NCBI RefSeq assembly: GCF_036588685.1
Contig: NC_086377.1
Coordinates: 2,356,001-2,420,000 of the forward strand
DNA length: 64,000 nucleotides
Reading direction: 5' to 3'
From: Mytilus trossulus
Taxonomy: Eukaryota
A model generated the notes under the pieces. It saw nothing but the letters and a program-made list of their open reading frames with translations. It was not told the DNA's origin and ran no database searches. The translations under genes and the position numbers were made by a program. Below are positions 271-51,890 of this stretch, one piece after another (positions within the stretch are counted from its first letter, which is position 1; every line of letters begins with the position of its first letter).

Positions 271-1056
271 TTTTAAGTAAGATATCAAGGATTCGGATAT
301 AGTATATGACAAATTTGAGGAAGTTTTTGTTCTAAAATTTTAAAACAATTTATAAATAGTATAAGATGAATTGTAGGAAGTTTTGTTCTCAAAATTGTAT
401 TCAATATATACATAGTATATGCTGAATACGAGGAAGATTTTGTTCTAAAATTTCAAATCAATATATAAGTAGTTAATGACAAATTTGAGGAAGTTTATAA
501 TCTAACACTTTAAATTAATATCTAAATATAAATTTCAAGGAATCAAATATACGAACTGTGTAAACTACAAACACGTCCTTGTAGATGTTATCATACGTAG
601 TATGCTCTTTTTAGGTATAAGTTTACTTTTGTACTGAAATACTATCATATGCGTTTAAACATGTTCGAGTTTTTATAACATGCATGCTTCTCATTACGTT
701 ATAATATGATATACACGGACATATTTTAGAAATCAAATTAAAATCTATATCTAGAGCTGTCAGGTTTTTTGACTATCACTACTGGTAAAATAATTTAATG
801 TCTATAATGAAATGAGATAAGTTCAAGGCCTACGCAGAAAACTAACTAGTATGAAGAATGGACAATAATACTATCCCTGACGCAATGAGTAAAACTTCCA
901 CTATGCATCAAAGGCTTTATGAATTAATAATTTAAGACCAGGAGTAGAATGCATATATAAATGACCAATCAATTGAAATACAGATTCTACAAAGTTGATC
1001 GATCATGTTGAAAGGCATGACATGTAAACTGCAACTGTTATAAATTGTTGTTGTGA

Positions 1057-1632
1057 AGAAGAGTCATATTTTCCAAATATTGTAATCCCATTCTAGTATT
1101 ACAACATGTATCCCACAGAATATTTGAGAAGAGTAAAATTTTCCATATGTTGTAATCCCAATCTAGTATTACAACATGTATCCCACAGAATATTTGAGAA
1201 GAGTAGAATTTTTCATATGTTGTAATCCCATTCTAGTATTACAACATGTATCCCACAGAATATTTGAGAAGAGTAGAATTTTCCATATGTTGTAATCCCA
1301 TTCTAGTATTACAACATGTATCCCACAGAATATTTGAGAAGAGTAGAATTTTCCATATGTTGTAATCCCAATCTAGTATTTCAACATGTATCCCACAGAA
1401 TATTTGAGAAGAGTAGAATTTTCCATATGTTGTAATCCCATTCTAGTATTACAACATGTATCCCTCAGAATATTTGAGAAGAGTAGAATTTTCCATATGT
1501 TGTAATCCCATTCTAGTATTACAACATGTATCCCACATAATATTTGAGAAGAGTAGAATTTTCCATATGTTATAATCCCATTCTAGTATTACAACATGTA
1601 TCCCGCAGAATATTTGAGAAGAGTAGAATTTT
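1057..1632. repeat. 60-bp minisatellite, ~9.5 copies
   Basis: The unit gagtagaattttccatatgttgtaatcccattctagtattacaacatgtatcccacagaatatttgagaa repeats in exact 60-nt register. Confidence 0.95.
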
Positions 1633-2179
1633 TGGTCAATGTTATCAAGCTCATATTCAATATCATTGACCTCATTGTCTAGTGCAAGCCACTGTTAATA
1701 ATAATTGGTTTCAAACAATTGATTACGAAAATTATTTTAAGTTATAGGACAATACTATTGTGTCAATATTATGACTGTTTTCGTTGCTCATTGTTAAACA
1801 TGTATATGATTTAGTCCATTTAGTCATGACACAATTTGCATGGATCATATCGATCATAACCATAGATTCTACTTATCGAATGTTAAATACAGTTTATATG
1901 AACGTTGTTATAGAACCTTTACATTAAAATCTTCCAAGACTTCCAAGATACATGTAACATTCAATCGTCTTGATTATAATCAGTAAAAATGCTAGACATC
2001 TCAATGTGTTTTTACTCAGGTTTACCTATACATTGTTTTACTTATGTTTATGTTTATAATATAGTTCAAGGATTTGTATAAAAGTAATTTAATAGTGCTA
2101 TATTTTTTAAACAATTTCTTTTTAACATTTTAAAACAGCATATCTAAATATCAGATTTGGAAACCGTTTTAATTAAGGA

Positions 2180-2630
2180 GTGTTCCTATCTAAACATATC
2201 TCTGGTTTGACTATATTTAGTATTGTTTCTATTTAAACATAGCTCTTGTTTGACTATATTTAGCATTGTTTCTATTTAAACATAGCTCTGGTTTGACTAT
2301 GTTTAGGATTGGTTCTATCTAATTATAGCTCTGGTTTGGCTATATTCAAGATTGTTTCTATCTGAAATAGCTCCAGATTGACTATATTTAGTACTTATTA
2401 TATCTAAAAATCGCTCTGGTTTGACTTTCTTCAGATTTGTTTTTAATTTAACATCGCCCTGGTTTGACTATTTTCAAAAATGGTTCCATGTAAACATTGC
2501 TCTGGTTTGACCAAATTTAGGATTTTTTTCTATCTAAACATAGCTTCGGTTTGACTATATATTAAGTATTGTTTCTATGGTTTTACTATATTTAGGATTA
2601 TTTCATATTAACCATAGCTCTGGTTTGACT
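2180..2630. repeat. Degenerate ~43-bp tandem repeat, ~10 copies
   Basis: The core agctctggtttgactat recurs at 2241, 2284, 2327 and onward. Confidence 0.85.
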
Positions 2631-3107
2631 TCATTATTTGGTCATTCGAGTTTATGAGCACTTTCGTGTTTCTTCATTATTTGGTTATAGGTTTTTACAT
2701 ATTTATCTATTGATCATATTTGAGGATCATGCCCATGAGGTACAATACAAATGGTACCGTTGATAATTATACACACGTCTGCATGGTCTGCTTCTATATA
2801 GCACATGTTCTAACTTTTTCTTCTATCACACCAAGAAATGTGCAGTATCAAGTACAATTGTGTAAAATAACAAAAATACTGAACTCCTTTGAAAATTTAA
2901 AATGGAAAGTCCCTAATCAAATGGCAAAATCTAATGATAAAACACATGTTACGAATGAATGGGTTGTTTGGTAAACTTGAATGACCAAAAGATTAAGTCA
3001 AACCAGAGCTATGGTTAGATAGAAATATTGAATGCACACATACATCGAATAAAAAGACATGTGGGAATTATTGTTAAAGCAACCAATCAGAACAAATCCA
3101 TACACAA

Positions 3108-3795
3108 CAGTCAGGGGCGTTACTTAAACAAGTTAATTTTTTTTTAATTACTTATATAAGTATTTTTTTATTTTAAAAATAATAAAATTACTTAATAGAG
3201 TTATTTTAATTTTCAATAGAAAAATAGACTTAATGTAGTTTTCATGATTTTAAACAACATTTTATATCATAAAATAAAGAATTTATCAGATTTGAGAGGA
3301 GTATAGAGATAAAGGGTTACTTTGAAAATAATGACCAAAATATTACTTGAATAAGTTATTTTAAACTTTTTTTTTTTTTTTTTATCTAAGGCACATATGT
3401 AATTGATTTAGGTAACACATTATAAATAACTTCAGGTCTTAACCAATTCACAAGTATATATCTATTTATATTAGCCTACCTTCAAAATTTTAGAGGAAAA
3501 TGATAATTTAATAGTCCCAAGAGACCAGTTTTTGACCCAGATGCGTCGGTATGAAGGATAAGTCCGTCGGAAAGTTAATTAGTGTTTCTAAAAAAATAGG
3601 TTTTATATGTCAAGAGAAAATTAACCAGATAACTGTGAAAAATATTTAAAGCTAATTAAATCTGTATTCTTGGACACCTATAAAATAATATTCAGAAATA
3701 TAACTTAAATAAGTTATATTTAAATTAGCCTCGTTTTCAACATTACTTGTATAGATAATATTAATTGTTACTTGTTTAAGTAATGCCCCTGACTG
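3108..3795. mobile_element. Non-autonomous TIR DNA transposon (MITE) with 5-bp TSD
   Basis: TIRs are cagtcaggggcgttacttaaacaagt and acttgtttaagtaatgcccctgactg. The direct repeat cacaa lies at 3103-3107 and 3796-3800. Confidence 0.85.
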
Positions 3796-5194
3796 CACAA
3801 TGTAAATATCTACCAGTTTTCGGACATGTAAATCATCAAAATAGAAAAAAAATCATTAGTTAATAAATTCCTATTTTGTTTACTACATTTTGCTATTACT
3901 GTTTCTAAAGTTATTGTTTTCCGACACCACATTCAAAAATGTTGATGAAATTCATCCTCCAAAACCTTTAGGTTGTTTTCTTATCTGACAGACGATAAAT
4001 AAAACTCATTGGTGGCTATATTTATAACAGTTTTAGTAGAAATTATTTACAGATACAAAATGTTATAAAGGTACACGTACAATTGTTATCTACCTTTTAA
4101 CCAGGTTTAATCCATCGGTATTCACAGTAAGGATATACCTTTACCCAGAAAAGCATACGAATGTTCCTTAAAGTTAGATATTTTTTATCTATTTCACTTT
4201 TTAATCATTTAGATTTTTTTCTACTCTATTTGAGTGCCCTCAAATTGTCCTAATTAATTATTGACAATACGTCGTTTTTAGTGTCAATATGAGGAGCTGT
4301 TCACAATGATATTGAGTACAAGATGGCGATCTGTATACACATTTCTTTAATTCTATTGAAAAAAAACCTCATAAATAATATTTGACTTTGCCCAGATCAT
4401 AATGTTTATATGGATCAAAATTAAAATTAAAAAGCTTTCTATTGTCATGACATATAAGCATGAACAGAGAATTTTTATTTCTTTAATCAAAAAAATATTC
4501 TAGGTATTTAGCAGTTTTATATATTAAACAATGCATGCATTTATTTAACTTATACGTCTTATCTTGTTGACACATACAAAACAATGAAAGTGTATACAAT
4601 TCAATCACTCCACGAGCTGTCATCTTTGCATACAAGGCCATTAGATATCATTAACATAATTAAGGCGGAAGTGTCGTGAATATATATGCAACACTGTAAG
4701 GTCAAACCTCGATGTTGAAATGCGGCGTTAAAACTTATTTGAAAAAAACACCATTTGCTATTCTTTAGTTATTTATAAAATATGGAAAACAATGATACTA
4801 GTCACTACCTTCACTTGTTTCACAAACCAATCATCCACATAATGAAGTCAGCCGCCATTTTGTGACAGACCTATCGTCAGGAAACACTTAGTTAACGGAA
4901 ATATGTACATATCGAGAAGTTTGATGTATACAAAGAGTTTGAATGATAATGTCTGTATCTTTTTAATGTATTTGTTTGTAAATTTCTTACAAAGTCTTCA
5001 TTGTTTAATGTTTTTTTTCCAATAAACCAACATATTATAACTATTGTTTGTTAAAACACTGAAGATGAGTTTTCGCTGATATAACATTAACAAGTTAACA
5101 TTAACCACTAAGCATTCCACAGCTTGTTTTATAGTTCTAAACATGGAATAGTTATATGCATATATGTTGTTTTTAGTATATCGTATCTATCGAA

Positions 5195-5543
5195 AGGGGG
5201 ACGAAAGACACCAAAGGGACAGTCAAACTCGTAAATCTAAAACAAACTGACAACGCCATGGCTAAAAATGAAAAAGACAAACAGAAAAACAATAGTACAC
5301 ATGACACAACATAGAAAACTAAAGAATAAACAACACGAACCCCACCAAAAACTAGGGATGATCTCAGGTGCTCCGGAAGGGTAAGCAGATCCTGCTCCAC
5401 ATGCGGCACCCGTCGTGTTGCTTATGTGAATACAAATCCGGTAAATAGTCTAATTCGGTAGGTCAAATTCATGAAAGGGAAGGGGATTATAGTTACGACG
5501 TAAGGAACATATCCGATATCATTTGTGAAACGGTTATTCCATA
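5195..5543. mobile_element. SINE-like interspersed repeat, copy 1
   Basis: 5196-5420 is the near-perfect reverse complement of 6326-6553. A related copy lies at ~25790-25952 (gctccggaagggtaagca). Confidence 0.75.
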
Positions 5544-6230
5544 ATACATTCTGCAGAGGGTATACAAAAAAACGGGGATTGCAATTTTAAATAGATTGGT
5601 AAATAGCCTTTTTACATATAAGATGTCAAATTACACATCGTATTTATCGAAAATACATTCTGCAGATGGTATACAAAAAACGGGAATTGCAATTTTAAAT
5701 AGATTGGTAAATAGCTTTTTACATATAAGATGTCAAATTACACATCGTATTTATCGAAAATGCATTCTGCAGAGGGTGGATACCAAAAACGGGGATTGCA
5801 ATTTTAAATAGATTGGTAAATAGATTGGTAAATAGCTTTCTACATATAAGATGTCAAATTACACATCGTATTTATCGAAAATACATTCTGCAGAGGTTGG
5901 ATACCAAAAACGGTGATTGAAATTTTAAATAGATTGGTAAATAGCTATTTACATATAAGAAGTCAAGTTACATCGTATTTATCGAAAATACATTCTGCAG
6001 AGGGTGGATACCAAAAACAGGGATTGAAGTTTTAAATAGATTGGATGAAGTTATATGCATAAAAGATTCTATAAATAGTTTATCGTTTTTGTCGAAAATA
6101 CATTCTGCAGAGGGTGAATACTAAACACGGGGACATTATGCAGAGAAGGGATACTAAAACGGGGACAATGTGCACAGAGGGGACACTAAAACGGGAACAT
6201 TGTGCCCACGGGGACACTTAAACGGTTGAT
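5544..6230. repeat. ~108-bp tandem repeat (~5.5 copies) decaying into ~29-bp repeats
   Basis: The core acattctgcaga recurs at ~5546, 5655, 5762, 5883, 5990 and 6100. Confidence 0.85.
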
Positions 6231-7385: not shown

Positions 7386-8480
7386 AGTAAAGGCAACAGT
7401 AGTATACCGCTGTTCAAAACTCGTAAATCCATGGAAAAAAACAAAATCGGGGTAACAAACCAAAACCGAGCGAAACGCATTAAATATAAGAGGAGAACAA
7501 CGACACAACACCGAAACGCAACACACACAGAAATGGACCAAGCATCAGACAAAACACCACGAGAATAACAAATATAACATGAAAACCAAATACATGAATT
7601 TGGGATAGACAAGTACAGTGCCACGTCTTATCTCAATATCTCAAAAATAAGAGGAAACATAAACGATTCAACGTTAAAATGCAACACACAGAGAAACGAA
7701 CAATAATATAACAATGACCATCTTCCTGACTTGGTACAGGACACTTTTAAAGTGGAATAAAAGTGGTGGGTTAAACCTGGTTTTATGGCATGCCAAACCT
7801 CGCACTTTAATGGCAAAGTTAAATATAACATTGAAATGACAACATAATAATACAGGACTACAATACAAATAAATAGGAGAACATATTAGACAAAGAAAAA
7901 CATGATTAATAGATTAACAAAAAGCATCAGGTTTAAAATTCAATACGCCAAAAACGCGCCTTGTCCACACAAGACTCACCAGTGACGCCCAGATATAAAA
8001 GATCGAAAGTGACAAAAGTACAAAGTTGTACAGCACTGAAGATCAAAAGTTGAAAAGGTTTCGCCAAATACGGCATTGTTTTTATGCCCGGGATAAGAAC
8101 ATTCTTATTATATAGAACAATTCATGCTATTGCAAACAGTAAATGTTATCAAATGAATATGAAAGAGATATACACAAAGAAACTAAAGTATTAACTAATT
8201 ACAGAAAACTAAACCTGAATACATAACGCCTAGATATAAAAGATCGAACGTGAAAAAGGTACAAAGTTGTACAGCACTGAAGATCAAAAGTTGAAAAGGT
8301 TTTGACAAATACGGCATTGTTTTTATGCACGGGATAAGAACATCCAATTATGTAGAACACTTAATGCTATTGCAAACAGTATATTTTAACAAATGAATAT
8401 GAAAGAGATATAAATAATGAAACTGAAGTATTAACTAATTACAGAAAACTAAACCCGAGTTTATCACAAAATAGACACAC
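7386..8480 (-). mobile_element. Non-autonomous interspersed repeat with a degenerate hammerhead-ribozyme-like motif and a ~241-bp internal duplication (Penelope/retrozyme-like)
   Basis: 7986-8225 is repeated at 8227-8460. The minus strand at 7944-7992 reads gggcgtca-ctggtga-gtc-ttgtgtg-gac-aagg-cgcg. Confidence 0.5.
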
Positions 8481-8869
8481 ATCCGAATCAGTCTAGGAAC
8501 TTGACACCATATAATCTAAATATATGAGGTGAATATCATACAATAGATCTTTAGGATCTTTGTTTACAAAATTGAAAATGCCATCTCAAATATTTTCATT
8601 TAAAGTACATGTGTGGCCAAGTTATTGATACATAAAATTATAAATGATAAAGCGTAGTGTGTAGTAGATAGTTCTAGTCCAATCTAAGTTTTCCGTGTCG
8701 AAAAAAACTGTTTGCTTGAATGGGGTTGAAGTAACTTCAGTGACTGACCTATCGGCAAACATTTAACAGTTTCTATGAGCTGTCTGTTTAACTGTCACAT
8801 GTTAACTTTTATCAATCAGAATATTTAGTAAACAAATTTAGTTGCTGATTATCATATCACGCATAAGAA

Positions 8870-11800
8870 TAATTGCTTAAAAAACAGCCATGCTACTTTA
8901 ACTAGAAAAATTCCAGAAAAGGTTACTGAAACAGCTGCTTTAACTGTCTACATCAAAACCAGACACGGCGGTGTACATACTATCAGGAATACTACCCGTC
9001 AAATCACTGTCTACATAAACACCAGACCCGGCGGTGTACATACTATCAGGAATACTACCCGTCGAATCACTGTCTACATCAACACCAGACACGGCGGTGT
9101 ACATACTATCAGGAATACTACCCGTCGAATCACTGTCTACATCAACACCAGACCCGGTGGTGTACATACTATCAGGAATACTACCCGTCGAATCACTGTC
9201 TACATCAACACCAGACCCGGTGGTGTACATACTATCAGGAATACTACCCGTCGAATCACTGTCTATATCAACACCAGACCCGGCGGTGTACATACTAGCA
9301 GGAATACTACCCGTCGAATCACTGTCTACATCAACACCAGACCCATCGGTGTACATACTATCAGGAATACTACCCGTCGAATCACTGTCTACATCAACAC
9401 CAGACACGGCGGTGTACATACTATCAGGAATACTACCCGTCGAATAACTGTCTACATCAACACCAGACCCGGCGGTGTACATACTATCAGGAATACTACC
9501 CGTCGAATCACTGTCTACATCAACACCAGACATGGCGGTGTACATACTATCAGGAATACTACCCGTCGAATCACTGTCTACATCAACACCAGACCCGGCG
9601 GTGTACATACTATCAGGAATACTACCCGTCGAATCACTGTCTACATCAACACCAGACCCGGCGGTGTACATACTAGCAGGAATACTACCCGTCGAATCAC
9701 TGTCTACATCAACACCAGACCCATCGGTGTACATACTATCAGGAATACTACCCGTCGAATCACTGTCTACATCAACACCAGACACGGCGGTGTACATACT
9801 ATCAGGAATACTACCCGTCGAATCACTGTCTACATCAACACCAGACATGGCGGTGTACATACTATCAGGAATACTACCCGTCGAATCACTGTCTACATCA
9901 ACACCAGACCCGGCGGTGTACATACTATCAGGAATACTACCCGTCGAATCACTTCCCACATCAACACCAGACTCGGCGGTGTACATACTATCAGGAATAC
10001 TACCCGTCGAATCACTGTCTACATCAACACCAGACCCGGCGGTGTACATACTATCAGGAATACTACCCGTCGAATCACTGTCTACATCAACACCAGACAC
10101 GGCGGTGTACATACTATCAGGAATACTACCCGTCGAATCACTGTCTACATCAACACCAGACACGGCGGTGTACTTACTATCAGGAATACTACCCGTCGAA
10201 TCACTGTCTACATCAACACCAGACACGGCGGTGTACATACTATCAGGAATACTACCCGTCGAATCACTGTCTACATCAACACCAGACACGGCGGTGTACT
10301 TACTATCAGGAATACTACCCGTCGAATCACTGTCTACAACAACACCAGACCCGGCGGTGTACATACTATCAGGAATACTACCCGTCGAATCACTGTCTAC
10401 ATCAACACCAGACCCGGCGGTGTACATACTATCAGGAATACTACCCGTCGAATCACTGGCTACATCAACACCAGACCCGGTGGTGTACATACTATCAGGA
10501 ATACTACCCGTCGAATCACTGTCTACATCAACACCAGACACGGCGGTGTACATACTATCAGGAATACTACCCGTCGAATCACTGTCTACATCAACACCAG
10601 ACCCGGCGGTGTACATACTATCAGGAATACTACCCGTCGAATCACTGTCTACATCAACACCAGACATGCCGGTTTTACATACTATCAGGAATACTACCCG
10701 TCGAATCACTGTCTTCATCAACACCAGACCCGGTGGTCTACATACTATCAGGAATACTATCCGTCGAATCACTTCCTACATCAACACCAGACACGGCGGT
10801 GTACATACTATCAGGAATACTACCCGTCGAATCACTGTCTACATCAACATAAGACACGGCGATGTACATACTATCAGGAATACTACCCGTCGAATCATTG
10901 TCTACATCAACACCAGACACGGCGGTGTACATACTATCAGGAATACTACCCGTCGAATCACTGTCTACATCAACAACAGACACGGCGGTGTACATACTAT
11001 CAGGAATACTACCCGTCGAATCACTGTCTACATCAACACCAGACCCGGCGGTGTACATACTATCAGGAATACTACCCGTCGAATCACTGTCTACATCAAC
11101 ACCAGACACGCCGGTGTACATACTATCAGGAATACTACACGTCGAATCACTGTCTACATCAACACCAGACATGGCGGTGTACATACTATCAGGAATACTA
11201 CCCGTCGAATCACTGTCTACATCAACACCAGACATGGCGGTGTACATACTATCAGGAATACTACCCGTCGAATCACTGTCTACATCAACACCAGACCCGG
11301 CGGTGTACATACTATCAGGAATACTACCCGTCGAATCACTTCCCACATCAACACCAGACCCGGCGGTGTACATACTATCAGGAATACTACCCGTCGAATC
11401 ACTGTCTACATCAACACCAGACATGCCGGTTTTACATACTATCAGGAATACTACCCGTCGAATCACTGTCTTCATCAACATCAGACCCGGTGGTCTACAT
11501 ACTATCAGGAATACTATCCGTCGAATCACTTCCTACATCAACACCAGACACGGCGGTGTACATACTATCAGGAATACTACCCGTCGAATCACTGTCTACA
11601 TCAACATAAGACACGGCGATGTACATACTATCAGGAATACTACCCGTCGAATCATTGTCTACATCAACACCAGACACGGCGGTGTACATACTATCAGGAA
11701 TACTACCCGTCGAATCACTGTCTACATCAACAACAGACACGGCGGTGTACATACTATCAGGAATACTACCCGTCGAATCACTGTCTACATCAACACCAGA

Positions 11801-14800
11801 CCCGGCGGTGTACATACTATCAGGAATACTACCCGTCGAATCACTGTCTACATCAACACCAGACACGCCGGTGTACATACTATCAGGAATACTACACGTC
11901 GAATCAATGTCTACATCAACACCAGACATGGCGGTGTACATACTATCAGGAATACTACCCGTCGAATCACTGTCTACATCAACACCAGACATGGCGGTGT
12001 ACATACTATCAGGAATACTACCCGTCGAATCACTGTCTACATCAACACCAGACCTGGCGGTGTACATACTATCAGGAATACTACCCGTCGAATCACTTCC
12101 CACATCAACACCAGACCCGGCGGTGTACATACTATCAGGAATACTACCCGTCGAATCACTGTCTACATCAACACCAGACATGCCGGTTTTACATACTATC
12201 AGGAATACTACCCGTCGAATCACTGTCTACATCAACACCAGACACGGCGGTGTACATACTATCAGGAATACTACCCGTCGAATCACTGTCTACATCAACA
12301 CCAGACCTGGCGGTGTACATACTATCAGGAATACTACACGTCGAATCACTGTCTACATCAACACCAGACCCGGCGGTGTACATACTATCAGGAATACTAC
12401 CCGTCGAATCACTGTCTACATCAACACCAGACATGGCGGTGTACATACTATCAGGAATACTACCCGTCGAATCACTGTCTACATCAACACCAGACCCGGC
12501 GGTGTACATACTATCAGGAATACTACCCGTCGAATCACTTCCCACATCAACACCAGACCCGGCGGTGTACATACTATCAGGAATACTACCCGTCGAATCA
12601 CTGTCTACATCAACACCAGACATGCCGGTTTTACATACTATCAGGAATACTACCCGTCGAATCACTGTCTTCATCAACATCAGACCCGGTGGTCTACATA
12701 CTATCAGGAATACTATCCGTCGAATCACTTCCTACATCAACACCAGACACGGCGGTGTACATACTATCAGGAATACTACCCGTCGAATCACTGTCTACAT
12801 CAACATAAGACACGGCGATGTACATACTATCAGGAATACTACCCGTCGAATCATTGTCTACATCAACACCAGACACGGCGGTGTACATACTATCAGGAAT
12901 ACTACCCGTCGAATCACTGTCTACATCAACAACAGACACGGCGGTGTACATACTATCAGGAATACTACCCGTCGAATCACTGTCTACATCAACACCAGAC
13001 CCGGCGGTGTACATACTATCAGGAATACTACCCGTCGAATCACTGTCTACATCAACACCAGACACGCCGGTGTACATACTATCAGGAATACTACACGTCG
13101 AATCAATGTCTACATCAACACCAGACATGGCGGTGTACATACTATCAGGAATACTACCCGTCGAATCACTGTCTACATCAACACCAGACATGGCGGTGTA
13201 CATACTATCAGGAATACTACCCGTCGAATCACTGTCTACATCAACACCAGACCTGGCGGTGTACATACTATCAGGAATACTACCCGTCGAATCACTTCCC
13301 ACATCAACACCAGACCCGGCGGTGTACATACTATCAGGAATACTACCCGTCGAATCACTGTCTACATCAACACCAGACATGCCGGTTTTACATACTATCA
13401 GGAATACTACCCGTCGAATCACTGTCTACATCAACACCAGACACGGCGGTGTACATACTATCAGGAATACTACCCGTCGAATCACTGTCTACATCAACAC
13501 CAGACCTGGCGGTGTACATACTATCAGGAATACTACACGTCGAATCACTGTCTACATCAACACCAGACCCGGCGGTGTACATACTATCAGGAATACTACC
13601 CGTCGAATCACTTCCCACATCAACACCAGACCCGGCGGTGTACATACTATCAGGAATACTACCCGTCGAATCACTGTCTACATCAACACCAGACCCGGCG
13701 GTGTACATACTATCAGGAATACTACCCGTCGAATCACTGTCTACATCAACACCAGACACGGCGGTGTACATACTATCAGGAATACTACCCGTCGAATCAC
13801 TGTCTACATCAACACCAGACACGGCGGTGTACTTACTATCAGGAATACTACCCGTCGAATCACTGTCTACATCAACACCAGACCCGGCGGTGTACATACT
13901 ATCAGGAATACTACCCGTCGAATCACTGTCTACATCAACACCAGACATGCCGGTTTTACATACTATCAGGAATACTACCCGTCGAATCACTGTCTTCATC
14001 AACACCAGACCCGGTGGTCTACATACTATCAGGAATACTATCCGTCGAATCACTTCCTACATCAACACCAGACACGGCGGTGTACATACTATCAGGAATA
14101 CTACCCGTCGAATCACTGTCTACATCAACATAAGACACGGCGATGTACATACTATCAGGAATACTACCCGTCGAATCATTGTCTACATCAACACCAGACA
14201 CGGCGGTGTACTTACCATCAGGAATACTACCCGTCGAATCACTGTCTACAACAACACCAGACCCGGCGGTGCACATACTATCAGGAATACTACCCGTCGA
14301 ATCACTGTCTACATCAACACCAGACCCGGCGATGTACATACTATCAGGAATAGTACCCGTCGAATCACTGGCTACATCAACACCAGACCCGGTGGTGTAC
14401 ATACTATCAGGAATACTACCCGTCGAATCACTGTCTACATCAACACCAGACACGGCGGTGTACATACTATCAGGAATACTACCCGTCGAATCACTGTCTA
14501 CATCAACACCAGACATGCCGGTTTTACATACTATCAGGAATACTACCCGTCGAATCACTGTCTTCATCAACATCAGACCCGGTGGTCTACATACTATCAG
14601 GAATACTATCCGTCGAATCACTTCCTACATCAACACCAGACACGGCGGTGTACATACTATCAGGAATACTACCCGTCGAATCACTGTCTACATCAACATA
14701 AGACACGGCGATGTACATACTATCAGGAATACTACCCGTCGAATCATTGTCTACATCAACACCAGACACGGCGGTGTACATACTATCAGGAATACTACCC

Positions 14801-17800
14801 GTCGAATCACTGTCTACATCAACAACAGACACGGCGGTGTACATACTATCAGGAATACTACCCGTCGAATCACTGTCTACATCAACACCAGACCCGGCGG
14901 TGTACATACTATCAGGAATACTACCCGTCGAATCACTGTCTACATCAACACCAGACACGCCGGTGTACATACTATCAGGAATACTACACGTCGAATCACT
15001 GTCTACATCAACACCAGACATGGCGGTGTACATACTATCAGGAATACTACCCGTCGAATCACTGTCTACATCAACACCAGACATGGCGGTGTACATACTA
15101 TCAGGAATACTACCCGTCGAATCACTGTCTACATCAACACCAGACCCGGCGGTGTACATACTATCAGGAATACTACCCGTCGAATCACTTCCCACATCAA
15201 CACCAGACCCGGCGGTGTACATACTATCAGGAATACTACCCGTCGAATCACTGTCTACATCAACACCAGACATGCCGGTTTTACATACTATCAGGAATAC
15301 TACCCGTCGAATCACTGTCTACATCAACACCAGACACGGCGGTGTACATACTATCAGGAATACTACCCGTCGAATCACTGTCTACATCAACACCAGACCT
15401 GGCGGTGTACATACTATCAGGAATACTACCCGTCGAATCACTGTCTACATCAACACCAGACCCGGCGGTGTACATACTATCAGGAATACTACCCGTCGAA
15501 TCACTTCCCACATCAACACCAGACCCGGCGGTGTACATACTATCAGGAATACTACCCGTCGAATCACTGTCTACATCAACACCAGACCCGGCGGTGTACA
15601 TACTATCAGGAATACTACCCGTCGAATCACTGTCTACATCAACACCAGACACGGCGGTGTACATACTATCAGGAATACTACCCGTCGAATCACTGTCTAC
15701 ATCAACACCAGACACGGCGGTGTACTTACTATCAGGAATACTACCCGTCGAATCACTGTCTACATCAACACCAGACACGGCGGTGTACATACTATCAGGA
15801 ATACTACCCGTCGAATCACTGTCTACATCAACACCAGACACGGCGGTGTACTTACTATCAGGAATACTACCCGTCGAATCACTGTCTACAACAACACCAG
15901 ACCCGGCGGTGCACATACTATCAGGAATACTACCCGTCGAATCACTGTCTACATCAACACCAGACCCGGCGGTGTACATACTATCAGGAATAGTACCCGT
16001 CGAATCACTGGCTACATCAACACCAGACCCGGTGGTGTACATACTATCAGGAATACTACCCGTCGAATCACTGTCTACATCAACACCAGACACGGCGGTG
16101 TACATACTATCAGGAATACTACCCGTCGAATCACTGTCTACATCAACACCAGACATGCCGGTTTTACATACTATCAGGAATACTACCCGTCGAATCACTG
16201 TCTTCATCAACATCAGACCCGGTGGTCTACATACTATCAGGAATACTATCCGTCGAATCACTTCCTACATCAACACCAGACACGGCGGTGTACATACTAT
16301 CAGGAATACTACCCGTCGAATCACTGTCTACATCAACATAAGACACGGCGATGTACATACTATCAGGAATACTACCCGTCGAATCATTGTCTACATCAAC
16401 ACCAGACACGGCGGTGTACATACTATCAGGAATACTACCCGTCGAATCACTGTCTACATCAACAACAGACACGGCGGTGTACATACTATCAGGAATACTA
16501 CCCGTCGAATCACTGTCTACATCAACACCAGACCCGGCGGTGTACATACTATCAGGAATACTACCCGTCGAATCACTGTCTACATCAACACCAGACACGC
16601 CGGTGTACATACTATCAGGAATACTACACGTCGAATCACTGTCTACATCACCACCAGACATGGCGGTGTACATACTATCAGGAATACTACCCGTCGAATC
16701 ACTGTCTACATCAACACCAGACATGGCGGTGTACATACTATCAGGAATACTACCCGTCGAATCACTGTCTACATCAACACCAGACCCGGCGGTGTACATA
16801 CTATCAGGAATACTACCCGTCGAATCACTTCCCACATCAACACCAGACCCGGCGGTGGACATACTATCAGGAATACTACCCGTCGAATCACTGTCTACAT
16901 CAACACCAGACATGCCGGTTTTACATACTATCAGGAATACTACCCGTCGAATCACTGTCTACATCAACACCAGACACGGCGGTGTACATACTATCAGCAA
17001 TATTACCCGTCGAATCACTGTCTACATCAACACCAGACCTGGCGGTGTACATACTATCAGGAATACTACCCGTCGAATCACTGTCTACATCAACACCAGA
17101 CCCGGCGGTGTACATACTATCAGGAATACTACCCGTCGAATCACTTCCCACATCAACACCAGACCCGGCGGTGTACATACTATCAGGAATACTACCCGTC
17201 GAATCACTGTCTACATCAACACCAGACCCGGCGGTGTACATACTATCAGGAATACTACCCGTCGAATCACTGTCTACATCAACACCAGACACGGCGGTGT
17301 ACATACTATCAGGAATACTACCCGTCGAATCACTGTCTACATCAACACCAGACCTGGCGGTGTACATACTATCAGAAATACTACCCGTCGAAGCGCTAAT
17401 TGACAAAAGAGCACTGGATTATTTAACAACATCTGTAACCAAGATGAAAGCAGCACGGAAAAACAACTGGCGCGGAGACAAATCAGTGTTAAGTCGCTGG
17501 GCAGTAATAGCTGGTTTATACAAATCAAAAAGATCCTATCAAAATATAACATGGATGAAATCAACACCTACTTGATATACCTATGAAGAAAGAAAAATGG
17601 ATCACTTTAATAAACCGAATTATCCAAAAAAACTGGAGTGACTCAATAACAAGAATGGTTTCTTATAACAAAGGCCTTCAACACTTTATTTACACGGAAT
17701 TCCACCAAGGGAAGCTACATCCACTACTAAAAATCAAATGTCAATCAGTTAGAGACATAGGAAGAATTCCTCCAAAGCTAAAAAAATTAACCGGCACATA

Positions 17801-18366
17801 CATTCGGCACTCGCACAGAATCAAAATGTATGACAATGAAACAAACCCGAATTGTCTGATATGTCACCAACGGGACGAAGCGCTGGAACATTTTATCCCA
17901 GAATGTGAAGGGTTATCCGATACTAGAATCAATGATGGATGAAGTTAGTGCCATTCTGAAGGGTTCAATACATGTAGACTTTCATGAGCAAACATCAAAA
18001 GTAAAGATACAAATTCTTCTGGACATTACAATGCTGCGGGAAAATCTAAAACTAAATACAACATAGATGGCCGAAATCGAATACTGTAGCCGCCGACTTC
18101 TCTTTTTTTAACACACCACCAGATATAGTTTCCTGTCAAAAGGATGGAAAAAGGACTACAAAAACGTAAAGGTGTAATAACCCAACAACTGATGTTGAAA
18201 ATGAACAATGTGTAAATAACTTGTATATAAAACAAAAATCCAATGGTACTGCACTATATATAAAGCACGCAGTTGGGGGATATAACTGTTAGACACACTG
18301 AAGCCTATGAACACACTGAAGTGGTTCTCCTATATAGGTGGTTAAGGATACAGAGGTAAGGTAAGG
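8870..18366 (+). mobile_element. 5'-truncated non-LTR retrotransposon (LINE) ORF2 C-terminal remnant, interrupted by an internal tandem array
   Basis: The left flank translates LEKFQKRLLKQLL*LSTSKPDTAVYILSGILPV. The right flank reads EALIDKRAL/LFNNICNQDESSTEKQLARRQISVKSLGSNSWF, then LTGTY...CLICHQRDEALEHFIPEC (C-terminal CCHC-type zinc finger of LINE ORF2). A (gtaag)n tail lies at ~18356-18366. Confidence 0.8.
8940..17390. repeat. 63-bp tandem array (~134 monomers) with higher-order repeat structure
   Basis: The unit is tcactgtctacatcaacaccagacccggcggtgtacatactatcaggaatactacccgtcgaa. A 64-bp variant (gccggtttta) occurs at 10668, 11425, 12182, 12624, 13381, 13949, 14517, 15274, 16157 and 16914. 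Confidence 0.98.
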
Positions 18367-18374
18367 TTTAATCG

Positions 18375-20435
18375 TTTAAAAGGTTAGTAGTCAGCAGTTC
18401 GGTGTTGACATGAATACAAATGTTGGGGTCTAATCATTGTTACGTTATCATCATTTACAATATTAGTAGTCAGCATTTCAATGTTGACATGAATAAAAAT
18501 GTTGGGGTCTAATCATTGTAACGTTATCATCATTAACAAGGTTAGTAGTCAGCATTTCGGTGTTGACATGAATACAAATGTTGGGGTCTAATCATTGTTA
18601 CGTTATCATCATTTACAAGGTTAGTAGTCAGCATTTCGATGTTGACATGAATACAAATGTTGGGGTCTAATCATTGTTACATTATCATCATTTACAAGGT
18701 TAGTAGTCAGCATTTCGGTGTTGACATGAATACAAGAGTTGGGGTGTAATCATTGTTACGTTATCATCATTTACAAGGTTAGTAGTCAGCATTTCGGTGT
18801 TTACATGAATACAAATGTTGGGGTCTAATCATTGTTACGTTATCATCATTTACAAGGTTAGTAGTCAGCATTTCGGTGTTGACATGAATACAAGAGTTGG
18901 GGTGTAATCATTGTTACGTTATCATCATTTACAAGGTTAGTAGTCAGCATTTCGGTGTTTACATGAATACAAATGTTGGGGTCTAATCATTGTTACGTTA
19001 TCATCATTTACAAGGTTAGTAGTCAGCATTTCGGTGTTGACATGAATACAAATGTTGGAGTCTAATCATTGTTACGTTATCATCATTTACAATATTAGTA
19101 GTCAGCATTTCGGTGTTGACATGAATACAAGAGTTGGGGTCTAATCATTGTTACGTTATCATCATTTACAAGGTCAGTAGTCAGCATTTCGGTGTTGACA
19201 TGAATACAAATGTTGGGGTCTAATCATTGTAACGTCATCATCATTTACAAGGTTCGTAGTCAGCATTTCGATGTTGACATGAATACAAGAGTTGGGGTCT
19301 AATCATTGTTACGTTATCATCATTTACATGGTAAGTAGTCAGCATTTCGGTGTTGACATGAATACACATGTTGGGGTCTAACCATTGTTACGTCATCATC
19401 ATTTACAAGGTTAGAAGTCAGCATTTCGGTGTTGACATGAATACAAATGTTGGGGTCTAATCAGTGTTACGCTATCATCATTTACAAGGTTAGTAGTCAT
19501 CATTTCGGTGTTTACATGAATACAAATGTTGGGGTCTAATCATTGTAACGTTATCATCATTTAAAAGGTTATTAGTCAGCATTTCGGTGTTGACATGCAT
19601 ACAAATGTTGGGGTCTAATCATTGTAACGTCATCATCATTTACAAGGTTCGTAGTCAGCATTTCGATGTTGACATGAATACAAGATTTGGGGTCTAATCA
19701 TTGTTACGTCATCATCATTTACAAGGTTCGTAGTCAGCATTTCGATGTTGACATGAATACAAGAGTTGGGGTCTAATCATTGTTACGTTATCATCATTTA
19801 CATGGTAAGTAGTCAGCATTTCGGTGTTCACATGTTGGGGTCTAACCATTGTTACGTCATCATCATTTACAAGGTTAGAAGTCAGCATTTCGGTGTTGAC
19901 ATGAATACACATGTTGGGGTCTAACCATTGTTATGTTTTCATCGTTTACATGGTCAGTAGTCAGCATTTCGGTGTTGAAATGAATACGAATGTTGGGGTA
20001 TAATCATTGTTACGTCATCATCATTTACATGGTAAGTAGTCAGCATTTCGGTGTTGACATGAATACAAATGTTGAGGTCAAATCATTGTTACGTCATCAT
20101 CATTTAAAAGGTTTGTAGTCAGCATTTCGGTGTTGACATGAATACAAGAGTTGGGGTCTAATCATTGTTACGTTATCATCATTTAAAAGGTTATTAGTCA
20201 GCATTTCGATGTTGACATGAATACAGGAGTTGGGGTCTAATCATTGTAAAGTTATCATCATTTAAAAGGTTAGTAGTCAGCATTTTGATGTCGACATGAA
20301 TACAAATGATGGGTCAAATATTGTTTACGTCATCATCATTTAAAAGGTTAGTAGTCAGCATTTCGTTGTCGACATGCATACAAACGGTGGGGTCTAATAA
20401 TTTTTACGTCATCATCATTTAAAAGGTTAGTAGTC
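18375..20435. repeat. 79-bp tandem array, ~26 copies
   Basis: The unit is gttagtagtcagcatttcggtgttgacatgaatacaaatgttggggtctaatcattgttacgttatcatcatttacaag, with period 79 (18541 to 18620). Confidence 0.95.
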
Positions 20436-22799: not shown

Positions 22800-24418
22800 T
22801 ATTAAAATTTTGACAGTGCTCATGAGCTTTTGCAAACAATGATTTCCGACATTTATTATAAAATGGACAGTTTATTAAAAAATGAAACTCAACTTCAATA
22901 TTATTTTGAGAACAAAAATTACAAGTCCTCTGTGACTTTTCTATAGGTTTGTTCTTAAGTCGCTCTTTTTCTACTCGTAATTGGTGGGCACTTATTTAAT
23001 TTACATAAACTTTGTCTTGATTGAAAACTTTGAATATAAAGATATTTTCCATTTGGAAATTATTCTTATCAGAAAAATATATATCTAGCTTCCCATTAAC
23101 ATTATCTTTATCATTGAACCATGCTTTTAAAAATAATGTCTTTAACTTTTTCATAATAAGTTGTTTTAATATATTAATTGAATAATCAATACAATATGTA
23201 TCTTTCAATTCAAGCTTTTGTAAAATAAATTTAACAAAGGAATACCATGTCATAGTGTTATTTTCATGCATATCTTTGATACATAAAACGCTTCTTTCAA
23301 TAAATTTGAGTTACAATGATCTAATTTATGCAGATAGCTTAACATAGATATAACAATATTAAAATATTCAGGAAATCTACCTAATTCTGATTGTACAGCA
23401 ACATTTGTACTTTTATTATTTAAGCCTAAAATATGCTTACAGAAATTTAAGTTCATTTTATCAACAACATTAATCTGGTATATTTTTTTCAAGTACATTT
23501 GTAGCATCTTTTTTACAAGAAGCAGAGTTGGTTTTAAACATTACCCATATCTCTGAGCCATACAAAATTCTAGGTTTAATGGTATGGTCAAACAGATATA
23601 CATTTGTTTTAATACTAGCATCTGAGCCAGATAAACATATATTAAGTTTATATGAAGCTTTTAAAGATTTATAAAATAAGTCTTATTTTGCATAATTAAA
23701 TAGACTGGAACATAACTCCAAGGTATTTATATTTGAAAACAGTTTCAATTAATTCATTTTTAAAATAGAATGGTTCTTTTATGTGGCGTTCACTTTTATT
23801 AAAAATTAAAACTTTTTTTTTTTTTTAAGTTTATATTTAGGCAACAGGTATCACAGTATGATTCCAATGCCTTCAAGCGCTTTTGAAGTCCATTAGCAAA
23901 ATCAGAAAATACAATGACATCATCTGCATACATAAGACAGTCTATGTGACTAGTGCTGAGTTTTACACTAACAGGACAATTTAGTAAAAAGTTAGGTAGA
24001 TCATTTATGAATAGAATAAAAAGGGCAGGGCTTAAAATACCCCCTTGTCTAACCCCAATATAATGGTTAAAACATGGACCCAGTGTGTTATCAACTTTTA
24101 CTCTTAGATTATTAAGTGTATACATGTGTTTAATTAACTGGTAAAATTTTCCCCTAATGTCTGACTTGAGCATTTTTATAAGGATACCTGGGTGTATCAC
24201 AGTATCAATGGCTCTTTTAAAGTCAATAACACATGCATACAATTTACTTCCCTTACAATTAGTATATTTATCAATTTGAGGATAAACATGTGATCTCTTG
24301 TCCTTGATTAATTTCTGAAGCCAGCTTGGCAATCAGTCAAAATATTTCTCTCATCGAAATGTTTAGAAAGTCTTGTATTTAACACAACATTAAATAACTT
24401 TCCAATACAAGAACTTAT
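22800..24418 (-). pseudogene. Decayed LINE ORF2 (reverse transcriptase and C-terminal region)
   Basis: RT motifs LYACVIDFKRAIDTV, GVRQGGILSPALFILFINDL and LMYADD, followed by ILGLNNKSTNVAVQSELGRFP. Multiple frameshifts and stops. Confidence 0.9.
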
Positions 24419-26989: not shown

Positions 26990-27077
26990 AGTTAATCTGA
27001 TTAATTAGAAATAGGATGATGTGGTATGGGTGCCAATGAGACAACTAAGTTCCTTTTAAATAAGTTATTCTGATTAA
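26990..27077. repeat. First ~1.2 monomers of the 73-bp satellite, separated from the rest of the array by the giant insertion
   Basis: Same unit and orientation as 62605-64000, ending at ...tctgaTTAA. Confidence 0.9.
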
Positions 27078-29078
27078 AACAAGGTATTAAATAAAACTGG
27101 AAATCAACATCAATTCTAGAAAACCTCCATTTCTTCTTACCTCTTAATTTCATGGTGTTAGTTCAATTATTTTTTAATTTGATGTAATTACCTTTTTTTT
27201 CTGTTTAGTTGGTTTTTTTCATATTCAACCTATTAATTATGTTTTACATACATATTGTGCATTATAACTTACCTTAGGAAATAAATTGCAAAACTTGATA
27301 GTATGGCTAAACCTTTTCATGATTTGTAAACATGAAAACTTAGAAACTAAGCTTACTCCATGCATGCATGGACGAAGGTAACTAACGTTAACTTAGTCCA
27401 TGCATGCATGGACTAACACAACAGACTTAGTCCATGCATGCATGCACTAAGGCAACTAACCCTAACTTAGTCCATGCTTGCATGGACTAACACAACAGAC
27501 TTAGTCCATGCATGCATGGACGAAGGCAACCAAGGCTAACTTAGTCCATGCTTGCATGGACGAAGGCAACTAAAATTAACTTCTTTAAAGTTTAAAAAAT
27601 TTATAAATGCAAAATATTTCAAAAAAATCAAATTTTTCAAAAATTAAAAAAAAAATTAAATATTTAAAAAAAAAATCTTTTAAAATTTAATTCTTATAAA
27701 AATAAATGAAAAAAACATGAAAAATTTACAAAATTATTTTTTTCCAAAATGCTGAAAAAAGTTTAAATCCCATTTTTTTTAAAAATTAAACAAAAAGAAG
27801 AAAAAAATGGTTAATTATCACCACCAGATATAGGTACCCTTGGATATAGGTATAAATACCACATGAGAATATTCACGTCTGCCAAAAGATTAGAATGTGT
27901 TCACATTTCATTTCAATGGTAAAAACTCTTCACTGAACAGATCAGTTGGAGGTGATTTGTTTAACATAACCTGGACAGTAGCTGCAATTAGTTCCTGAAA
28001 GTTCCTAATCATTTAGTAGTGGTAAGTGTTATTTTAGTTTGTTGGTATTATATCTGTAATAAACATGTGTTGTTGCACTATGATTTTTGCCTTTGTCTCA
28101 ATAGCAGCTAACTTTTTGTATATTTTGTACATGTACATGCATTTAGTCGTCAAATCATCAACCCAACAATGTAAGATCTGTAAATTTGCTTTCACAAATT
28201 TTTTGTTCTTCCCATGCCGGGATTCTAATCCATGCTACTGAGATATTGTGACACCAAATCTGTACAATTTTTAAACACCAGAGAAGAGCAGATGATTTAA
28301 ACACTTTTGTGTAATCCAGCATTATATAAGATGTTTTGTGTCTAATGTTATTATTGCAGTTTGAGCATTCAAAAACATGTTCATTATGTCCACTGGTAGT
28401 GTTTGGTTGCTGTCTGCCATATTAAATGGATTTCCTTTTTTTGTTATTTGCTTAAATTTGTCTATTAGCTTTCTCTTTTGAAATTAAATAAAAACAGTTC
28501 ACAAATTGAGTGTGCTGGGCTTATTTTAATTAACCTTCATCAGAAACATACTAACAAAAATTTGAAAGCAAAGGATGTAGATACCATTATCTTGGGACTT
28601 AATAAGCCCATGTATAACGATCTTTAAATTCAGGCTTTTGCTCATTGTTGAAGACTTCAGGTGATCTGTACTTGTTTACATCAGTGCCCTTCTATGCAGG
28701 GCTAGCAGTTGTCTCAATTGCAATCATTCAATGTATCCTTGCTTTTGTATCATTTAAAGACTTCAATTCTTTAATCATTTCAGTTAACACATTTTAATTT
28801 CAAAACATTCAACAGATATTTCCAAATAACAAATTTTGTAAACAACAGATATAATTGGTAACTGGTAATTATTTTACAGTCAATATGTTTTTATATTTAT
28901 CAAGAGGCATCATAATCATGTTCATTAAATTCTTTCCTTGTCTGACTGTTACTGATCTCAATTAAAACCAGTGAAAATTGCAAGTAGCTTTTGGTTTCTA
29001 GTAGTACTATTTTGATAAGATGTGTAATTTTTCGTCATTTCTTTTGATGTTCTGTCATATCCAGTCAGACTATTTCAC
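27078..29078 (+). repeat. Left inverted arm (~2.0 kb) of the giant element
   Basis: Begins aacaaggtattaaataaaactgg and ends ...cagtcagactatttcac. Colinear with the reverse complement of the right arm. Confidence 0.93.
27353..27565. repeat. Six copies of the 24-bp palindrome ttagtccatgcatgcatggactaa (variants), spaced alternately 40 and 34 bp
   Basis: Copies start at 27353, 27393, 27427, 27467, 27501 and 27541, and are mirrored at ~62117-62330. Confidence 0.92.
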
Positions 29079-32977: not shown

Positions 32978-35531
32978 AAAGTAAAATCACAAAAATACTG
33001 AACTCAGAGGAAAATCAATTTGGAAAGTCCATAATCACATGGCAAAATCAAAAAACAAAACGCATCAAAAACGAATGGACAAGAACTGTCATATTCCTGA
33101 CTTGGTACAGGCATTTTCAAATGTAGAAAATGGTGGATTAAACCTGGTTCTATAGCGCTAACCCTCTCACTTTAATAACAGTCTCATCAAATTCCGTTAC
33201 ATTTACATGATGCGTTAAATAAACAGTCACAATCAATAAAATAGTCAAAATATGGGAACATCAGTCATCATCGTATAACAATTTAACAGGACACAACAAC
33301 ATCTACTATCTACGAACACATGGATTGATTTGAGTGTCTGACGTCAGAAAAATTATATACGTCACATAAATTTGTCGTTCAATGTGCATACAATAGTTAT
33401 CAAAAGTACCTGGATTATAAACAATTTTAAATTTTACATAGGCAATGAGCGCAGACAGGGTTAAAAAATCAAAAGTATGTAATAATAAATTACAGAAATC
33501 AAACTAGTCCAAAAGTTATACATAGAATTTTAATATATGAGAATCCAAAACTTTTAAAAGGAACAATTTAACAGGACACAAAAACCTATCCACGAACACA
33601 TGGATCTACTTGAGTGTCCGACGTCAGAAAATTTATATACGTCACATAAATTTGTCGTTCAATGTGCATACAAACAATTTTAAAATTTACATAGGCAATG
33701 TACGCATACAGGGTTAAAAAATCAAAAGTATGTAAGAATAAATTACAGAAATAGACCGAGATTCAAACTAGTCCAAAAATTATACATAGAATATATGAGA
33801 ATCCAAAACTTTTTAAAGGGAACAATTTAACAGGACACAATAACATCTACTGTCTAAGAACACATGGATTGATTTGAGTGTCTGACGTTAGAAAAATTAT
33901 ATACGTCACATAAATTTGTTGTTCAATGTGCAAACAAACAATTTTAAAAAATTTTCATAGGCAATGTACGCATACAGAGTTAAAAAATCAAAAGTATGTA
34001 AGAATAAATTACAGAAATAGACCGAGATTCAAACTAGTTCAAAAGTTATACATAGAATTTATGAGAATCCAAAAATTGTCAATTCCACTACGCCATTGAT
34101 TGATTTTGACGTTTGTGGTTCAACGTATAAAGTAATTCATAATAGAAATATATCATAATGACATATTATAGACAAATATCATACTGACGGGATCTTTTAA
34201 AGTACAGAGTCACGTTATAAGCACAAAAGAAATACAAAGAGTCACATATACAAAACAAATCACCAAAAAATGAAAGCCAATACAAACACATTGACGAGAT
34301 GTATAAGTACCGAGCCACGTCAAACGGATATCACATAAAACCATTCAACAGTAAAAGTAATCTTAATAATAGAACAAAAACAAATAAAAGAACAATAAAA
34401 CATGTTGTTAAGATGATACACAACATCAGTACGCAGAATCTATACATCAAGACCATCGTGTATTATTTGAGAAGTTGATACGGAATATTTATCAACAAGG
34501 TCTTGGTACCTTCCGATGAACTTTTTTAGAAAAAGGACGAGACGTTCTTTGACATACCCCTGGTTCATCAACTTTCTACTCAGACACTGATGACGTTTTA
34601 CAAAGTCTGAGTAGGAGCTGCAAGCTCTTGAATATCGAATAAGTTGGGAAATATATATCCCATATGCAGGTGAAGTTGGTATATTGCTACTAAGGTGGGG
34701 GAAATTTATAATTTCGAAATTAAAATTGTCTTGTATGTCATAGATTCTGATACTGAGATGACTGTGTAAGTCAAATTCGAGATATAAGTCTAAAAATGAG
34801 GCGGAGGAAGCCGTGTCTGTTGTTTCTTTAATCTCGAGTTCTGGGGGATATATTAATGGAACCCAATCAGAAAAGTTCGGATTGTTTAAGGAAAGAACAT
34901 CATCAATATATCTGAAAGTGAAATTAAATAATCTGGCTTCTTTGATCCTCTTGTTTTTGACAAGTGTCTGGAGGAACTCCGATTCATATGAAAATAAGAA
35001 GAAGTCGGCAAGAAGAGGCGCACAGTTTGTTCCCATAGGAATGCCGACAACTTGTTGGAAAAGTCTACCTCCAAACTCAACAAATATGTTGTCGATAAGA
35101 AACTCCAGCATACTGACTACTTGTTCTTCTGTGTAGCATGATTTACCTTTTTGTTTGTCACTATTAACGAAATATGCTTTATGAAATCCCAAAGTAATAA
35201 ATTTATAGCGTATGCTAGCTACCATTTTTATGTTGAAAGGCATTGTGGATAATTTCTTTTAGGCGATTTTTCAATTTTACATCGGGAATGGTGGTATACA
35301 GGGTTGAAAAATCAAAAGTTTTGATGGAACTTATTTCGGAAAGAGACCGAGATTTGAAATTGTCTAGAAGTTCTTTAGCATTTTTAAGAATCCACATATG
35401 GTTAATACCACTACGCGAGTAAACAGTTTCACAGTATTTCTGAAGACCCTCTTTCACTGCGGACAGAATTTTAGTCAATCTAATAGACAATTCTTTAGTG
35501 GAACATGAAGATGAGCCAGCAATATATAACT
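32978..35531 (-). mobile_element. 5'-truncated Penelope-like retroelement with a 3' region containing three ~255-bp repeats
   Basis: RT ORF remnants at 34440-35530. Tandem ~255-bp repeats at ~33280-34075. The terminal module is shared with 2862-2970 and 1-270. Confidence 0.8.
34440..35530 (-). pseudogene. Penelope-like reverse transcriptase (frameshifted near 35230, 5'-truncated)
   Basis: Motifs TFDFSTLYTTIP, QVVGIPMGTNCAPLLAD, FRYIDDVL, SFLDL and SNIPTSPAYGIYISQLIRYSRACS. The ORF stops with no C-terminal GIY-YIG domain. Confidence 0.88.
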
Positions 35532-41605: not shown

Positions 41606-41609
41606 CATC

Positions 41610-50030: not shown

Positions 50031-50160
50031 CTGTATGATTGCCAATGAGACAAATCTAGTCTCTAGACAATAGACACAATAACATTAGAAATTAACAACT
50101 TTAGGTCACTGTATGGCCTTCAACAATGATAAAACCAGAAACTACTATAAGTTACAATAA

Positions 50161-50583: not shown

Positions 50584-51890
50584 TCTTTCGTCCGTCAGTC
50601 CTGTTTCTTGTCATCGCAACTCCTTTCAAACCATGCATCAGAATTTCATGAAACCTTTTTAGATAATAAGGACATACTATGTAGTTGTGCATATTGACCG
50701 GAAATTGTGATTCAATTTTTTTTCTAGGAGTTACGCCCCTTTGAACTTATTTACTTTAATGTACTACTGCAACAGTTTGTCATCTCATCTTCTCTCAAAC
50801 CACACAACAAAATTTCATGAAACCTTTTCAGAAAATAAGGACATACTATGTAGTTGTGCATATCAACGGGAAATTGCAATTCATTTTTTTTCCTAGGAGT
50901 TACGCCCCTTTGAACTTATTTACTTCAATGTTCTACTGCAACAGTTTGTTATGGCAACTCCTCTCAAACCACACAACAGAATTTCACGAAACCTTTTCAG
51001 ATAGTAAGGACATACTATGTAGTTCTGTATATCGACGGGAAATTGTGATTCAATTTTTTTCTAGGAGTTGCGCCCCTTTGAACTTATTTGCTTCAATGTA
51101 CTTCTGCAACAGTTTGTGATCTCAACTCCTCTGAAACCACACAACAGAATTTTTTTTTCTTACACTAAATTAATTTCTCCAATGACAATGTGGGGACGTG
51201 GGGTATGTGAGTGTGCTCACTAAGGTTCTTTAATTGTATTTAATGATAATACATAATATATATATACATGCACTTTCATTTTTTGACAAAAACCATCAGA
51301 AAAGTGACATTTTTTGGCAAATTCAATAGATTGTTCATACGAAAGCTTGAATCTGAGCGTTTTTAATGACTAAGTCAGTCAAAATCTATCACATTAACTA
51401 ATTGAATCAATTGAAATAGACAGTTAAGTGTTTAAAAAGTGTTCAAAATCTTTCGTTAGATGAATTTGAAATTTGAGGCCAAAATCAGAACCTTACCTAC
51501 TGCTCTTATTTGTTACCTTAAGTAGTTGTTACTTTATCATATGGTACAAAAATAATTTTAAAAAAGCAATTTTTGATGGCCTCAGATGAATTGTAAAATG
51601 TAGATATCATTAAAATTGCTCAAAATTATCTCCCTTTGGTATAAAAAAGCCATTTTTGAACTCATCCGTGACCTTTATTTTTTATTATTGTTTTAATTAA
51701 GCTGTTCTTAAACTAAACTATTGTAAAATTTGAGCGATTTCTGTAATTAAGTTCTCTTATTTCGGTATTACCTCTATTTCTGCTATTAGTTCAACAGAAA
51801 AAGGGTACCTTTACAAAAATGTATGCTTCTTTCGAAGGCAGGTTGTGAACGGTGACCCCATTTTTTTTTATTAAGTATAAGATTTAAGTA
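50161..51890. mobile_element. Three-level nest: a copy of the 39058 family, containing an aggagtag... element (~50225-51505), which contains a HINE-like repeat (~50537-51232) with ~180-bp internal tandem units
   Basis: 51515-51870 is the reverse complement of ~39160-39545. The internal units aaaccttttcagataataaggacatactatgtagt occur three times. Confidence 0.6.

Follow-up and report, generated by a model that had tools for sequence, protein, structure and literature searches.

The origin of a satellite's first duplication is an open question, and a mussel locus at which an array lies between the two halves of the reading frame it came from raises it in concrete form. The window, by which we mean the whole 64,000-nucleotide stretch of Mytilus trossulus DNA that was analyzed, carries near its left end a 63-bp tandem repeat that an initial annotation, made from the letters, described as a satellite born inside a LINE ORF2. 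The array, its host, and their immediate surroundings are as follows (window coordinates):

8600-8880, no strand assigned: unrelated multi-copy repeat, recognized by contig depth, which joins the LINE fragment at 8880/8881
8881-8940, plus strand: short LINE coding segment preceding the unit, corresponding to P0001 residues 448-467 (19/20 match) and containing one stop
8941-17392, plus strand: tandem array of 134 whole units of LINE codons 468-488 in P0001 numbering (Tandem Repeats Finder and phase cut)
8941-10641, plus strand: array units 1-27, with no 64-bp unit and with short, local recopying only
10642-17392, plus strand: array units 28-134, in higher-order blocks of 12, 12, 7, 12, 9, 9, 12, 14, 12, and 8 units, with one and the same 64-bp variant at the head of every block
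17393-18177, plus strand: remaining LINE reading frame up to its stop codon, with frameshifts near 17416, 17574, and 17928 and two stops
17853-17906, plus strand: C-terminal zinc knuckle C-x2-C-x8-H-x4-C (Pfam zf-RVT, E 0.002, 19.2 bits, below the 27.5 cut-off)
18178-18367, plus strand: presumed 3' UTR read from the sequence, with three short AGGT-type repeats at its end (18353-18367) as presumed tail
18371-20435, no strand assigned: separate 79-bp tandem array of 26 copies that abuts the LINE end (Tandem Repeats Finder)

The host LINE and its one-unit parent

If the array grew from LINE codons, reducing it to one unit should give a sequence that runs contiguously along a LINE protein, and it does. 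The left 60 bp, one unit, and 24 bp of right flank align without a gap to residues 448-496 of the LINE protein P0001, with 42, 44, or 45 of the 49 residues identical depending on the unit chosen, and P0001 and a second LINE protein, P0006, each contain the unit once. Of 162 related proteins compared, 48 match the region and 37 span the unit with five residues on each side; the unit is single in all 37 (36 without an indel, one with a two-residue insertion), eight of which are close relatives at 87-100%. The one-unit form, with the unit leading straight into right-flank sequence, is also present in contigs of all three DNA runs consulted (X1, X2, and X3). The claim that the array grew from LINE codons, putatively of an ORF2, is supported by this contiguity and by the one-unit parent, and for this array one can read the parent, the two junctions, and the ancestral letters.

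Other particulars of the initial annotation fared variously. The monomer peptide that it quoted is the commonest unit translation (22/134 units), and its translations of the left and right flanks are correct, although the stretch given as left flank that begins, after a stop, with LSTSKPDT already belongs to unit 1. The DNA on the left, called unique, is LINE for 60 bp (8881-8940), but 8600-8880 is another repeat. On the right the LINE does resume, and the element extends to about 18367, beyond the noted end at 17600. Collapsing the array restores colinearity with the LINE C-terminus but not an open frame, since the flanks contain three stops and three frameshifts.

The host LINE is a dead 3' fragment of 1.1 kb. 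With the array reduced to one unit it measures 1096 bp (8881 to about 18365) and covers the last 303 residues only; tblastn finds no reverse transcriptase (RT) part of it in the window, and its right flank matches P0001 through to the final residue (tblastn E 3e-128). Besides the three frameshifts, 35 of 281 flank residues are changed relative to P0001, stops accounting for three of them; intact relatives differ from each other at 7 and 15 of 303 residues.

The parent family is classified from its sequences, namely the RT type in the parents and the C-terminal zinc knuckle, as a non-LTR retrotransposon (LINE). Two Mytilus proteins, one at 87% and the other at 77% identity, match a 127-residue open stretch within the right flank, and the cluster of the former has 11 members, the 10 that are named coming from four Mytilus species. 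Pfam places an RVT_1 domain (E about 1e-22) and weak zf-RVT matches in P0001 and P0006, whose best solved structural relatives are LINE-1 ORF2p and R2, while Exo_endo_phos matches in P0006 (E 1.8e-4) and P0009 (E 4.6e-5) both lie just under the cut-off. The family is large, with 603 representatives at E≤0.001 that have the C-terminal piece and a summed contig depth several times that of a single copy. An exact eight-residue motif of P0001 occurs in three RT sequences of the available portion of the PMC10294476 alignment, all three of them RTE/Proto2 from Mytilida, and by eye these resemble P0001 along the RT. The host LINE therefore probably belongs to the Proto2 clade, as judged by motif look-up and not by a tree; an RTEX identity, the initial guess, gained no support from the search. 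Diagnostic features of Proto2 were not found in the portion of PMC7846101 consulted, nor was a DNA motif of the family found in 354,229 characters of PMC10294476 supplement file 24 (2.49 MB), and a consensus of the family may be held in the library of that study. A metagenome scan with P0008 gave 87 pattern matches, none of which was confirmed, and yielded no parent DNA.

The left end of the fragment is harder to read. The repeat at 8600-8880 reaches a summed X1 contig depth of up to 437, versus 30-33 for its two zero-difference contigs, and one X1 contig departs from the window sequence after 8880; family contigs in X1, X2, and X3 run upstream of 8881 into LINE sequence that is absent from the window. 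Around the LINE copy no target-site duplication was found, the longest shared words being 6-7 bases and not at both junctions, and the continuation of the left-hand repeat known from X1 is absent from the window and does not resume to the right of the LINE. The 5' end is therefore perhaps a truncation or perhaps a later rearrangement. Not all non-LTR clades make target-site duplications. At the other end, the role of the AGGT-type repeats as LINE tail is presumed from the window sequence.

One X1 contig (0 differences) and two X2 contigs (four differences each) cross the junction at 8880/8881, so the LINE insertion appears to be common to other samples; X1 is possibly from the same source as the window, in which case it is not independent. 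The locus-specific X1 contig has no continuation past 8921 among the contigs listed.

Structure of the array

Tandem Repeats Finder reports a 63-bp period with 134.0 copies and 94% matches at 8943-17392, and a cut in true phase sets the array at 8941-17392 (8.45 kb), as 134 head-to-tail units of which 124 measure 63 bp and 10 measure 64 bp. All units are whole, and neither end carries a partial one. The ten longer units share one identical one-base insertion, which marks the block starts. Recopying on a larger scale is seen at lags of 19, 26, and 30 units: units 37-55 and 56-74 are an exact 19-unit block with 0 differences, units 59-78 and 89-108 differ at three positions, and units 87-107 and 113-133 at four. 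Most of the array consists of such nested blocks, which hold 7-14 units and were recopied in stretches of 19-30, so that the later growth proceeded by whole blocks of units.

The units fall into 34 types, 14 of which occur once, and are distinguished by 38 different substitutions (11 of the variants singletons), with a mean pairwise difference of 5.4%; they encode 33 different peptides. All four gametes are present at 29 of 231 site pairs, as expected from exchange or conversion between units, although recurrent mutation could explain these pairs too.

A long head-to-tail array with higher-order structure accords with the term satellite, but the array has been demonstrated as one array at one place only. 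In the terms of PMC3389668, where a unit is below 100 bp, it is a minisatellite, and we describe it as a single-locus minisatellite with higher-order structure. Nothing indicates a dispersed satellite family or a function.

Birth and growth of the array

The likely history is growth in place, with one blunt local duplication at the start and repeated unequal exchange or gene conversion thereafter. Microhomology at the array junction is 0 on the left and 0 on the right, but 508 of the 1013 possible 63-bp duplications in the element would also be blunt, so bluntness excludes only the direct-repeat model. Flanking direct repeats of 5-10 bp and an incomplete terminal unit, the marks of the direct-repeat and slipped-strand models, are absent. 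On this account homology-independent repair or a copying error would have produced the first duplication early in the life of the LINE copy. The dimer would then have provided homology for growth, first unit by unit and later in blocks of 7-30 units, through unequal exchange or gene conversion, and the array would be neutral DNA. Against it stands that a pre-expansion allele of the locus has not been seen, and the order and timing of the steps are inferred.

The early date comes from comparing units with the family state. Family letters were taken from contigs at the six sites where unit 1 differs, on the basis of the differences listed among the X-run contigs, and other positions were assumed to equal the array consensus. 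At each of the six sites the family letter is kept by between 16 and 133 of the 134 units, no difference being fixed, and the units average 5.8% from the family state. After a recent start the chance of no fixed difference would be 0.08, 0.03, or 0.01 at flank divergences of 4, 5.5, or 7%, values that we chose. Because no site is fixed against the parent, the first duplication probably took place early in the life of the copy. One observation is awkward for mutation after that event: a derived two-base state at unit positions 6-7 occupies the leftmost unit, five bases from the edge, as well as 115 of the 134 units, a position and prevalence that fit a late start with conversion too.

Such a late start, in which an already mutated copy was duplicated and minority units with family letters were afterwards converted from other LINE copies, gains from the placement of the 16 units that keep the family letters at positions 6-7, all of which are internal. 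In addition, one X1 contig from another locus has one of the two derived letters, as read from depths, and the blocks are nearly identical, so that much of the array's length is recent. Yet conversion would be required at two separate sites (positions 6-7, and position 25, where 60 units have the family letter), a recent start predicts the fixed differences that are missing, and 38 different substitutions have accumulated among the units; we consider this course unlikely. A different start for the same later growth is that the element's own reverse transcriptase made the first duplication at insertion, slipping back 63 bases shortly before it stopped. The available portion of PMC3389668 proposes that such repeats can begin during retrotransposition, the unit begins 60 bases from the 5' end of the 1096-base fragment (about 6% by chance), and the lack of any fixed difference from the family agrees with so early an origin. 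That 5' end, however, is not established as a true truncation, with the target-site duplication not found, and a fold at the unit is neither stable nor unusual (rank 324 of 1003). X2 also counts against it: with the same 5' junction, all its contigs at 8942-8947 show family letters, and the sole X2 contig seen past the unit end is of the one-unit form, both with the caveat that the contigs are unphased. Polymerase slippage of this kind seems to us likewise unlikely.

Birth of the array in another LINE copy, with entry here by homologous recombination, for example from a circle, draws on the many copies of the family noted above. It is very unlikely: no contig crosses a unit-to-unit junction in X1, X2, or X3, where the records are filtered and such a gap proves nothing, and searches with array peptides in all three frames, covering lengths above about 220-245 only, found no repeated-unit protein at E≤0.001, a weak sign. 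The same searches bear on the still less credible reading that the array encodes a repetitive protein. The unit has no stop in any of its three plus-strand frames, and stop-to-stop frames of 925, 1561, and 1929 codons traverse the array, but the reading frame shifts at each of the ten frameshifting units. Nor do the variants point to purifying selection in the LINE frame, 7 of 38 being synonymous against 11.7 expected (p 0.11), and we see no coding constraint because the synonymous count is not raised and a frameshifting unit was copied ten times. Selection for the frame was likewise considered and set aside, since chance alone gives an in-frame length with codon-aligned ends about 1 time in 9, and the copy is a dead one. 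About 6% of one RNA run (X24) was compared and yielded 0 reads, which is no test of transcription. Finally, the length of the array might be an assembly artefact, as could be suggested by its one 19-unit block (about 1.2 kb) repeated without a difference and by its not being seen among the contigs listed for X1, whose left flank matches at 0 differences. Thirty-four unit types in a nested, recombined order and 11 singleton variants are unlike stutter, so that at most the copy number could be off, and an artefact is highly improbable. Growth in place from a single early, blunt duplication is the reading we retain.

Known systems and neighboring repeats

Tandem repeats born inside transposons, LINE ORF2 included, are well documented, and the mussel array is a clean new example; newly observed here are its blunt junction, the nested multi-unit blocks that make up most of it, and the lack of any site fixed against the parent. 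The portion of Ahmed and Liang (2012; PMC3389668) consulted counts 7,276 transposon-derived human repeats, 601 of them from L1. There, 5,747 of 5,932 clusters are single-locus, 6,817 of the 7,276 repeats lack both flanking direct repeats and an incomplete last unit, and most fit neither standard model. The mussel array is like these human minisatellites in repeating part of a transposon in place, at a single locus, without flanking repeats or a partial unit; the human cases described are mostly of about two units, whereas the mussel array has 134 and higher-order blocks. In the available part of the review PMC9659126, chicken HinfI (CR1) and, from LINE-1, Phodopus PROsat and harbor seal Pvc 20 are, like the mussel array, tandem repeats related to LINE ORF2 coding sequence, and any part of an element is concluded to be able to serve for tandem repeats. 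As described there, the LINE piece of HinfI and PROsat lies within, or is similar to, part of the repeat, whereas the whole mussel unit is LINE and both flanks are kept. Squamate SINE-derived satellites (sSats), as presented in the portion of PMC10702118 consulted, share with the mussel array an origin from part of a retroelement and the persistence of parent sequence beside the array, at one end or, in minor variants, at both; they extend to 1000 units and derive from SINEs, often at many loci, in contrast to a coding LINE segment seen at one locus. The bivalve Proto2 LINEs of PMC10294476 compare through the RT motif and the likeness by eye described above, and the family was not located in the tables consulted. 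A title-level search of the open-access literature found no paper on the 63-bp repeat or on a Proto2-derived satellite.

The array is a good test locus for the first steps of array birth and not a new mechanism. Because the parent, junctions, and ancestral letters are known and the insertion seems common to several samples, alleles could order these steps. We speculate, and think it decidedly doubtful, that the array began at insertion, when the LINE's own reverse transcriptase slipped bluntly by 63 bases near its 5' stop, and that short or unexpanded alleles survive in related mussels sharing the insertion. If both were true, all stages from one unit to a higher-order array would be readable at one locus, and they would allow a direct test of the start that has been proposed, though not demonstrated, for homology-free transposon-derived repeats.

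Tandem repeats are abundant in this region, with many short arrays (periods 57, 70, 43, 107, 32, 266, and 169) at 299-6225, 33419-34074, and 50608-51152. Just left of the LINE and its array, a segment of about 241 bp is duplicated in tandem (7985-8218 and 8226-8458, 91% identity). On the other side, the 79-bp array, whose unit has no dispersed copy elsewhere in the 64-kb window, begins three bases past the presumed LINE tail, and the word AAGGT common to that tail and the 79-bp unit is perhaps target-site microhomology. A 73-bp array of 19 copies (62605-64000) runs off the window; a 95%-identical single copy lies at 26990-27077, with shorter matches at 6585, 44293, 50033, 52037, 54603, and 60502, and this array, too, probably arose by expansion, in its case of a dispersed repeat. 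A palindrome-rich 74-bp/40-bp repeat occurs twice in opposite orientation (27345-27582 and 62113-62330). Other LINE reverse transcriptase fragments lie at 23799-24332 on the minus strand (RVT_1 E 1.5e-18) and, as a weak tblastn match, at 41607-41708 on the plus strand. Open frames without a Pfam match at 49025-50062 (345 codons) and 45884-46267 (127 codons), both on the minus strand, are possibly transposon remnants. At 34440-35258 on the minus strand, a 272-codon open frame with no Pfam match at E≤0.01 contains an RT-like YIDD motif and presumably resembles Penelope or DIRS elements.
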